From: a virus
Lineage: Duplodnaviria > Heunggongvirae > Uroviricota > Caudoviricetes
Reading direction: 5' to 3' (one strand)
IMG/VR virus record: IMGVR_UViG_2660238548_000013
DNA length: 4,565 nt
Part shown: in pieces, positions 60 to 575 of the stretch
Layout of the letters: every line of letters begins with the position of its first letter
How positions within the stretch are numbered: the first letter of the stretch is position 1
Notes under the pieces: generated by a model
What the model was told of the DNA's origin: nothing
Seen by the model: only the letters and a program-made list of their open reading frames with translations
The model's database searches: none
Translations under genes and position numbers: made by a program

Positions 60-575
60 TCAGAAACGATGATCTGGCAGCCTGAGTTCACAGATAAAAC
101 ACTCTCCAGGAAAACCGGGGCGGTTCACTGCTGCAAGCACCTCATTTTTTGTTGGGGTGCTTTTTTTCAATTCAATAACACAGCACTCCAGTTTTTCAAT
201 ACGTGATTCAACATCATCTTTTTCTGACCGCAGTGTTGACGGCGGCATCTTCAGAGAACAAGTAATTCTTCCCGGTAGCTTTCCTTTGTAGGTTATCAAC
301 ACATCCTGCGCCTCTAAAATTACGGGGCGATTTTCCGGCAACGGACCATCCCCTTCACATAACCCGGCAGCAACATCCATGAAAAACTGCTTCGCCTGCT
401 TTTTCGCCTCAGCTTCGTAAAACTCCAGCGTGGCACCTTCAGTACGGTCAAGACTAATCGCCACATCTGGCAACAACAGTGACGGATACCCACCAATTTC
501 CAGTGCCACAGTAACAGTAATCTTATCCGGGTAATTATTTATCCCTTTAACAACCAGTTCGTATTTTTTCTTCAT
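60..575 (-). CDS. Hypothetical 171-aa protein, no recognisable family; soluble, Cys-rich C-terminus (CC...CxxC)
   Basis: ORF in six-frame track; ATG 4 nt after the holin TAA with GGGGAGAG about 9 nt upstream (inside the holin 3' end), so tightly coupled to the holin. No hydrophobic N-terminal SAR segment and no lysozyme-like motif I can recognise. Local GC by eye about 40-46% versus about 55-60% in the esterase gene. Confidence 0.75.
   Translation of the reverse strand: MKKKYELVVKGINNYPDKITVTVALEIGGYPSLLLPDVAISLDRTEGATLEFYEAEAKKQAKQFFMDVAAGLCEGDGPLPENRPVILEAQDVLITYKGKLPGRITCSLKMPPSTLRSEKDDVESRIEKLECCVIELKKSTPTKNEVLAAVNRPGFPGECFICELRLPDHRF

Follow-up and report, generated by a model that had tools for sequence, protein, structure and literature searches.

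A YdfR-family gene behind an S21-type pinholin gene that most probably ends in an IS3-family element

The closest described relative of the gene considered here is ydfR of Escherichia coli K-12 (b1555, Qin prophage), which is located between a 71-aa S21-type holin gene and a lysozyme gene; the holin neighbour and the gap of 4 nt after its stop codon are the same at our locus. In S21 the dual-start motif of the holin gene encodes the holin's own antiholin. Full-length K-12 YdfR interacts in the two-hybrid system with residues 1–597 of RNase E, the catalytic half of the enzyme, and YdfR residues 1–72, which were recovered in a two-hybrid screen, are sufficient for RNase E binding (PMC13232886). 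RNase E 1–598 as well as RNA co-purified with Strep-YdfR, and overexpression of ydfR had an effect on few transcripts and none on growth (PMC13232886). The reported relationship is one of binding, an effect of YdfR on RNase E activity not being among the findings (PMC13232886); an earlier genetic screen, as it is cited in PMC13232886, tied ydfR to envelope integrity. For the role of the family the report of RNase E binding is the only experimental lead (PMC13232886).

We analyzed a stretch of viral DNA of 4,565 nt (in the following called the window), the features of which are listed in Table 1. The gene next to its holin gene is an ordinary and already catalogued one, namely an IS-truncated member of the YdfR family in the usual slot. 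K-12 YdfR has a length of 103 aa, whereas the native form in the lineage of the window comprises 176 aa with an extra region (residues 75–112) and a helical tail. Unlike the K-12 protein, the window copy is cut at residue 149 and, as read, fused to 22 IS-derived residues.

Table 1. Features located in the window (position 1 is its first nucleotide)
Feature	Position	Strand	Basis or remark
IS3-family right end (IS1203/IS629-like)	1–127	+	127/127 identity to IS ends; remainder beyond the window
IS-encoded C-terminal tail (V)NRPGFPGECFICELRLPDHRF with 'CxxC'	60–127	-	codon map and IS alignments
171-codon ORF as read	60–575	-	apparent fusion of 149 native YdfR-family codons, hybrid V150 and 21 IS-encoded codons
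Native part of the ydfR-family (DUF1327) late gene, residues 1–149	128–575	-	conserved core is residues 1–112
Terminator-like hairpin with T-run	135–172	+	antisense to ydfR, within its coding sequence
Holin stop / 4-nt spacer / ATG junction	576–590	-	contains the Shine–Dalgarno sequence GGGGAGAG
Holin, S21-type class II (pinholin), 71 aa, Met1/Met4 dual-start motif	580–795	-	Pfam PF04971
Holin N-terminus MYQMEK...	783–795	-	Met1/Met4 dual start
DUF826 gene	871–1140	-	upstream of holin
DUF1378 gene	1178–1360	-	upstream of holin
SASA-family esterase, 645 aa, nanS-p-like	1508–3445	-	DUF1737+SASA+DUF6645; upstream of holin
Terminator-like hairpin accompanying STnc100	3558–3540	-	
STnc100 sRNA match	3586–3752	-	Rfam RF02076
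DUF3927 gene, 45 aa	3789–3926	-	
TerB-family pseudogene	3923–4285	-	internal stop
Terminator-like hairpin past Q	4442–4425	-	ACCCGTCGCCAGGCGGGT followed by T7
Last codons of the Q antiterminator	4523–4565	-	coordinate transfer from L007

A YdfR-family gene next to the pinholin gene

By sequence comparison the 171-aa ORF is a clear homologue of YdfR/DUF1327. Residues 1–100 matched the Pfam family DUF1327 (PF07041, YdfR family) with 150.1 bits (E = 2.1e-44), at a gathering cutoff of 25 bits and over profile positions 1–88 of 93, and BLASTP against K-12 YdfR (from NC_000913) resulted in 47% identity over residues 1–74 (E = 8e-23). PHROGs 2091, 1085 and 406 were matched as well, the first two of them over residues 1–142. 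In a large protein collection we observed 943 homologues, essentially all of them DUF1327 proteins and many called 'YdfR family protein', which is also the NCBI label for the same gene in relatives. No NCBIfam model matched the protein, and we found nothing that would connect it with metal binding, a lysozyme or a defence system. The first-pass annotation had called the gene unrecognised, and the DUF1327 match corrects this. It had named ydfR as a precedent for a small gene between holin and endolysin and judged the two proteins to be unrelated; the gene named was the right one, while the alignment with K-12 YdfR shows that the supposed lack of relationship was wrong.

The position of the ORF was confirmed as annotated before, with 171 codons starting 4 nt after the holin stop and a ribosome binding site inside the 3' end of the holin gene (the Shine–Dalgarno sequence at 583–590), and translational coupling of the ydfR-family gene to the holin gene is probable. 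The holin ORF matched Pfam PF04971 ('P21 holin S', E = 3.6e-33) and is 80% identical to K-12 EssQ; its Met1/Met4 start resembles the 71/68 antiholin/holin pair of S21. A hydrophobic N-terminal helix is absent from the 171-aa protein: the maximal 19-residue Kyte–Doolittle mean is 1.18, at a position that is not N-terminal, compared to maxima of 1.70 in the holin and 1.54 in the hydrophobic N-terminus of the lysozyme from a relative. The Pfam profile search likewise found no lysozyme domain in it (no PF00959 match), and with neither this match nor an N-terminal hydrophobic segment the identity as SAR endolysin was ruled out. The product is a soluble accessory protein, the gene of which is placed between the pinholin gene and the expected SAR endolysin, and in this respect the earlier description as a soluble gene product without SAR helix or endolysin features stands. 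The lower GC content compared to the esterase gene, which had been estimated by eye, was borne out by calculation: the native ydfR-family part has 44.7% GC (GC3 43%) versus 53.7% for the holin gene and 54.3% for the esterase gene.

The gene order holin (S), ydfR, lysozyme (R) was observed in K-12 Qin, in phage PhiR5_1, in the Stx2a phage Stx2_95 and in strain 1613. The neighbour on the holin side is seen in the window, and the lysozyme side is seen in the relative L007, K-12, PhiR5_1, Stx2_95 and strain 1613. Using the DUF1327 core as tblastn query we found 101 phage records, including H-19B, BP-4795, mEp460 and many Stx1a and Stx2c phages. As 436 phage records have this holin type, about 23% carry the module and about 77% are without it. 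In Shigella phage POCJ13, which has no ydfR, R starts at the same junction (stop plus 4 nt) with the same Shine–Dalgarno sequence. Judged by these gene arrangements, the ydfR-family gene is an optional module between the S21-type pinholin gene and lysozyme R in intact relatives, and since it uses the junction of R in module-less phages it would be expressed together with the lysis genes. According to the first-pass annotation, conservation of the gene at this position in most related phages, with an annotated function, would speak against its reading; we found the conservation (101 phage records) and a family name, the name being one without established function. The wider interest of the locus lies in the role of the YdfR family, which occurs in about one quarter of the phages with an S21-type holin, many Stx phages included.

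In a set of 1.84 billion proteins this narrow family has 58 representatives at 50% identity. It is mosaic, with a conserved core (residues 1–112) and variable C-terminal regions. Homologue lengths range from 98 to 296 aa among the matches listed, with 329 aa in Stx2_95, and natural short forms of 113–118 aa occur. Regarding single homologues, approximately residues 13–113 are tandemly duplicated within P0001 (207 aa), and P0002 (196 aa) may be duplicated in the same way. P0039 is a fused holin+DUF1327 call and P0086 an ANT (PF03374)+DUF1327 protein. These four architectures may be real variants, or artefacts of assembly or gene calling. A 3,093-aa match from the representative search (P0158, 19 stretches) was rejected as an artefact of TVTVT-rich repeats and is not a relative.

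An IS3-family end at the 3' side of the ORF

We aligned the window with three relatives and observed near-identity from position 575 down to position 128 and complete divergence below. Among 5,426 complete E. coli genomes, 4,084 contain the stretch from 1 to 127, full length and 100% identical, as the end of an IS3-family element; the median number of places in the genomes that have it is three. In an annotated IS3-family copy the stop codon of the programmed-frameshift transposase corresponds to window position 85 and the end of the element to position 127, and for an annotated IS1203 copy in strain 1613 (96% identical) the alignment stops exactly at 127 (...GGCGGTTCA). Window positions 2–85 (+) encode LGRLGHIPPAEAEKAYYASIRNDDLAA and a stop codon, i.e. 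the C-terminus of the transposase with its last 27 codons, and the terminal inverted repeat at position 127 ends with ...CCGGGGCGGTTCA. The inverted repeat end (TGAACCGCCCCGG...) follows the 3' part of the OrfAB transposase gene, as is characteristic of an IS3-family terminus. Window 1–127 shares this transposase 3' part as well as the terminal inverted repeat with IS1203 and IS629 of the IS3 family. In contrast to these elements the window holds 127 nt only and one end, and the insertion site was not found elsewhere.

Because all relatives diverge at 127/128 and window 1–127 is an IS end, only residues 1–149 are native. The codon map assigns residues 1–149 to the native gene, V150 to a hybrid codon and residues 151–171 to the antisense strand of the IS terminal inverted repeat. 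The ORF crosses the insertion junction (...GCAGCAG/ATGAAATG..., the slash marking the junction) and ends at a TGA stop codon (window 60–62). Codons 151–171, including C159 and C162, are encoded by window 60–125 inside the IS end, and the IS-derived tail of the fusion ORF includes NRPGFPGECFIC. On these sequence comparisons we consider it highly probable that the first 149 codons of the ORF are the 5' part of a ydfR-family gene of 176 codons, located in the late operon of a lambdoid prophage, and that the tail stems from an IS3-family element. The IS3-family (IS1203/IS629-like) insertion at 127/128 appears to have removed the last 27 native codons, and the displaced 3' part would lie beyond the window. 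As far as the alignments go, the length of 171 aa is a by-product of the IS insertion and the ORF as delimited is not an intact gene. The exact junction (CCGGGGCGGTTCACTGCTGCAAGCACCTC) had 0 matches in the GTDB representative genomes and was not found in the 5,426 complete E. coli genomes, none of which spans window 1–330 across the junction, and the exact 171-aa product has no database record.

The cysteines of the C-terminus had been regarded by the first-pass annotation as one CC...CxxC cluster and a possible metal site. Since C159 and C162 lie in IS-encoded codons, the 'CxxC' is IS-derived. In the native CC pair (131/132), C131 is retained in some relatives only and position 132 is usually Y; C106 varies among relatives as well, and C73 is the only invariant cysteine in the family. 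A metal site formed by this cluster was therefore ruled out. Both the odd length and the cysteine motif stem from the insertion of an IS, an event typical of STEC prophages in decay, and the lesson is that an ORF running into the edge of a window can gain a false 'motif' from the end of a mobile element.

Uninterrupted alleles were found in close relatives. Window 128–4565 (4.4 kb) is 99.9% identical to the prophage of O103:H2, O121 and O45:H2 STEC, and strain FWSEC0007 has the same locus without an IS at that point. The intact allele comprises 176 aa in L007 (5918–6448) and in P0004, which shows 99% identity to the window protein over 149 aa; over this part the intact alleles differ from the window protein by 1–2 substitutions. 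The 176-aa allele of the O103:H2/O121/O45:H2 STEC prophages is thus near-identical to the window protein over residues 1–149; unlike the window copy, it is uninterrupted and has the C-terminal end ...DEMKETILELAARLNCASLLKEHFQQP / ...AADEMKETILELAARLNCASLLKEHFQQP. In the uninterrupted locus a convergent 87-aa ORF overlaps the 3' end of ydfR and is followed by the gene of a 177-aa lysozyme and by a spanin gene, and for the identical 176-aa P0004 the gene order is the same on another contig. The lysozyme (PF00959) starts ~320 bp past the ydfR stop and has a hydrophobic N-terminus, which we take to be that of an R21-type SAR endolysin. The expected endolysin therefore exists in the prophage lineage, one module further, and by analogy the endolysin in the genome of the window would lie past the IS.

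The terminator-like hairpin on the strand opposite to ydfR is conserved in all relatives. In L007 the convergent 87-aa ORF (5722–5985 (+)), which has a 68-nt overlap with the ydfR 3' end, ends ~20 nt before this hairpin; no Pfam, NCBIfam or PADLOC match was found for it. In the window the IS insertion separates the antisense hairpin from the convergent ORF. We also observed different IS3 insertions in the same ydfR-family gene in L003 (strain SJ7, 4850–5000), in O103:H2 12009 and in others, and these insertions in sister strains are accompanied by a duplicated ~60-bp segment of the ydfR-family gene. IS elements have therefore interrupted this locus on more than one occasion.

Candidate role of the family and fate of the truncated allele

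The AlphaFold2 model of the protein has a mean pLDDT of 57, with values of 65–86 for residues 1–72. Three beta strands and a long helix are predicted within residues 1–73 and a further helix at ~122–139, the prediction being reliable only for residues 1–72. Foldseek gave no match in the PDB at E ≤ 0.001; its top matches were generic curved beta-sheet/NTF2-like designs over ~44 residues, which were not significant, and no fold was assigned. A profile search of PDB sequences found nothing below E = 0.07.

Phage-encoded modulators of RNase E are known, e.g. T7 gp0.7 and phiKZ Dip. If the K-12 interaction is physiological, the YdfR family would belong with them, its target being the nuclease of the host degradosome; in contrast to this likeness, the two modulators have no sequence or fold relation to the YdfR family. 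For the function of the family we propose that YdfR proteins may be soluble cytoplasmic accessory proteins and not lysis effectors, that the conserved N-terminal domain (residues 1–72) would bind RNA and/or RNase E in its catalytic half, and that this contact would change RNA decay in the late phase of the lytic cycle. By analogy to the K-12 protein, an accessory protein of the late operon that touches RNase E and/or RNA from the cytoplasm via its N-domain is possible; we put it forward with low confidence, the RNase E link coming from a single study, based on overexpression, of a homologue with 47% identity (PMC13232886). As the N-domain is kept in the truncated allele, activity could persist there, although the prophage around it is visibly in decay. 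It is unlikely, in our estimation, that all of this holds together, i.e. that YdfR proteins are an unrecognised class of lysis-cassette accessories, coupled to the pinholin and docking to RNase E/RNA, with the N-domain of the truncated allele still active. If true, YdfR proteins would reshape RNA decay in the final minutes of the lytic cycle.

For the window allele itself the chances are close to even, although slightly below, that the truncated fusion is a dead remnant, the IS having inactivated the gene in a decaying prophage with R/Rz probably cut off from late transcription. Several observations point to this: 27 native residues are gone, a TerB-family pseudogene with an internal stop is present in the same late operon, this gene carries other IS3 insertions in sister prophages (L003), which also have IS-truncated terminase genes, and related copies are called pseudogenes by NCBI, including the uninterrupted one in L007. 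However, the core (residues 1–112) and the region corresponding to the RNase E-binding part of K-12 YdfR (residues 1–72) are intact, and since forms of 113–118 aa exist naturally, C-terminal truncation need not abolish activity.

Regarding the family as a whole, the main functional rival to the RNase E model is lysis regulation. YdfR proteins would then act from the cytoplasm on the triggering of the pinholin or on the release of the SAR endolysin, which would explain the fixed position between S and R. Their invariant place and the probable translational coupling to the holin are consistent with such a role, as is the envelope-integrity screen in the form cited in PMC13232886. However, the protein has no membrane segment, the holin has its own Met1/Met4 dual-start motif, ~77% of the phages with the same holin go without the gene and overexpression gave no growth defect (PMC13232886); we regard lysis regulation as distinctly improbable. 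The proposal of the first-pass annotation, a novel, horizontally acquired and metal-binding factor for superinfection exclusion or abortive infection, could draw on the GC content below that of the neighbours and on the moron-like place in the late operon, but is largely refuted already and very improbable, as the CxxC is IS-encoded, the native cysteines (106, 131 and 132) lack conservation, the family of the protein is already catalogued and the PADLOC defence models matched neither the window ORF nor the intact 176-aa allele.

Further features of the late region

The genes for DUF826, DUF1378 and the esterase, all located upstream of the holin gene, form the block that Stx-type prophages usually have between Q/stx and their lysis genes. 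No stx genes were found in the late region of the window, and a tRNA scan of the window found none. The late operon also has, upstream of its nanS-p-like esterase gene, a strong match to the Rfam sRNA family STnc100 with 101.6 bits (gathering score 47, E = 3.9e-22), together with a terminator-like hairpin. The TerB-family pseudogene and the DUF3927 gene are located between the end of the Q antiterminator gene and the esterase gene. A further terminator-like hairpin was observed ~80–100 nt downstream of the end of Q, and this strong hairpin fits the pR'/tR' late-promoter region as expected at this place.
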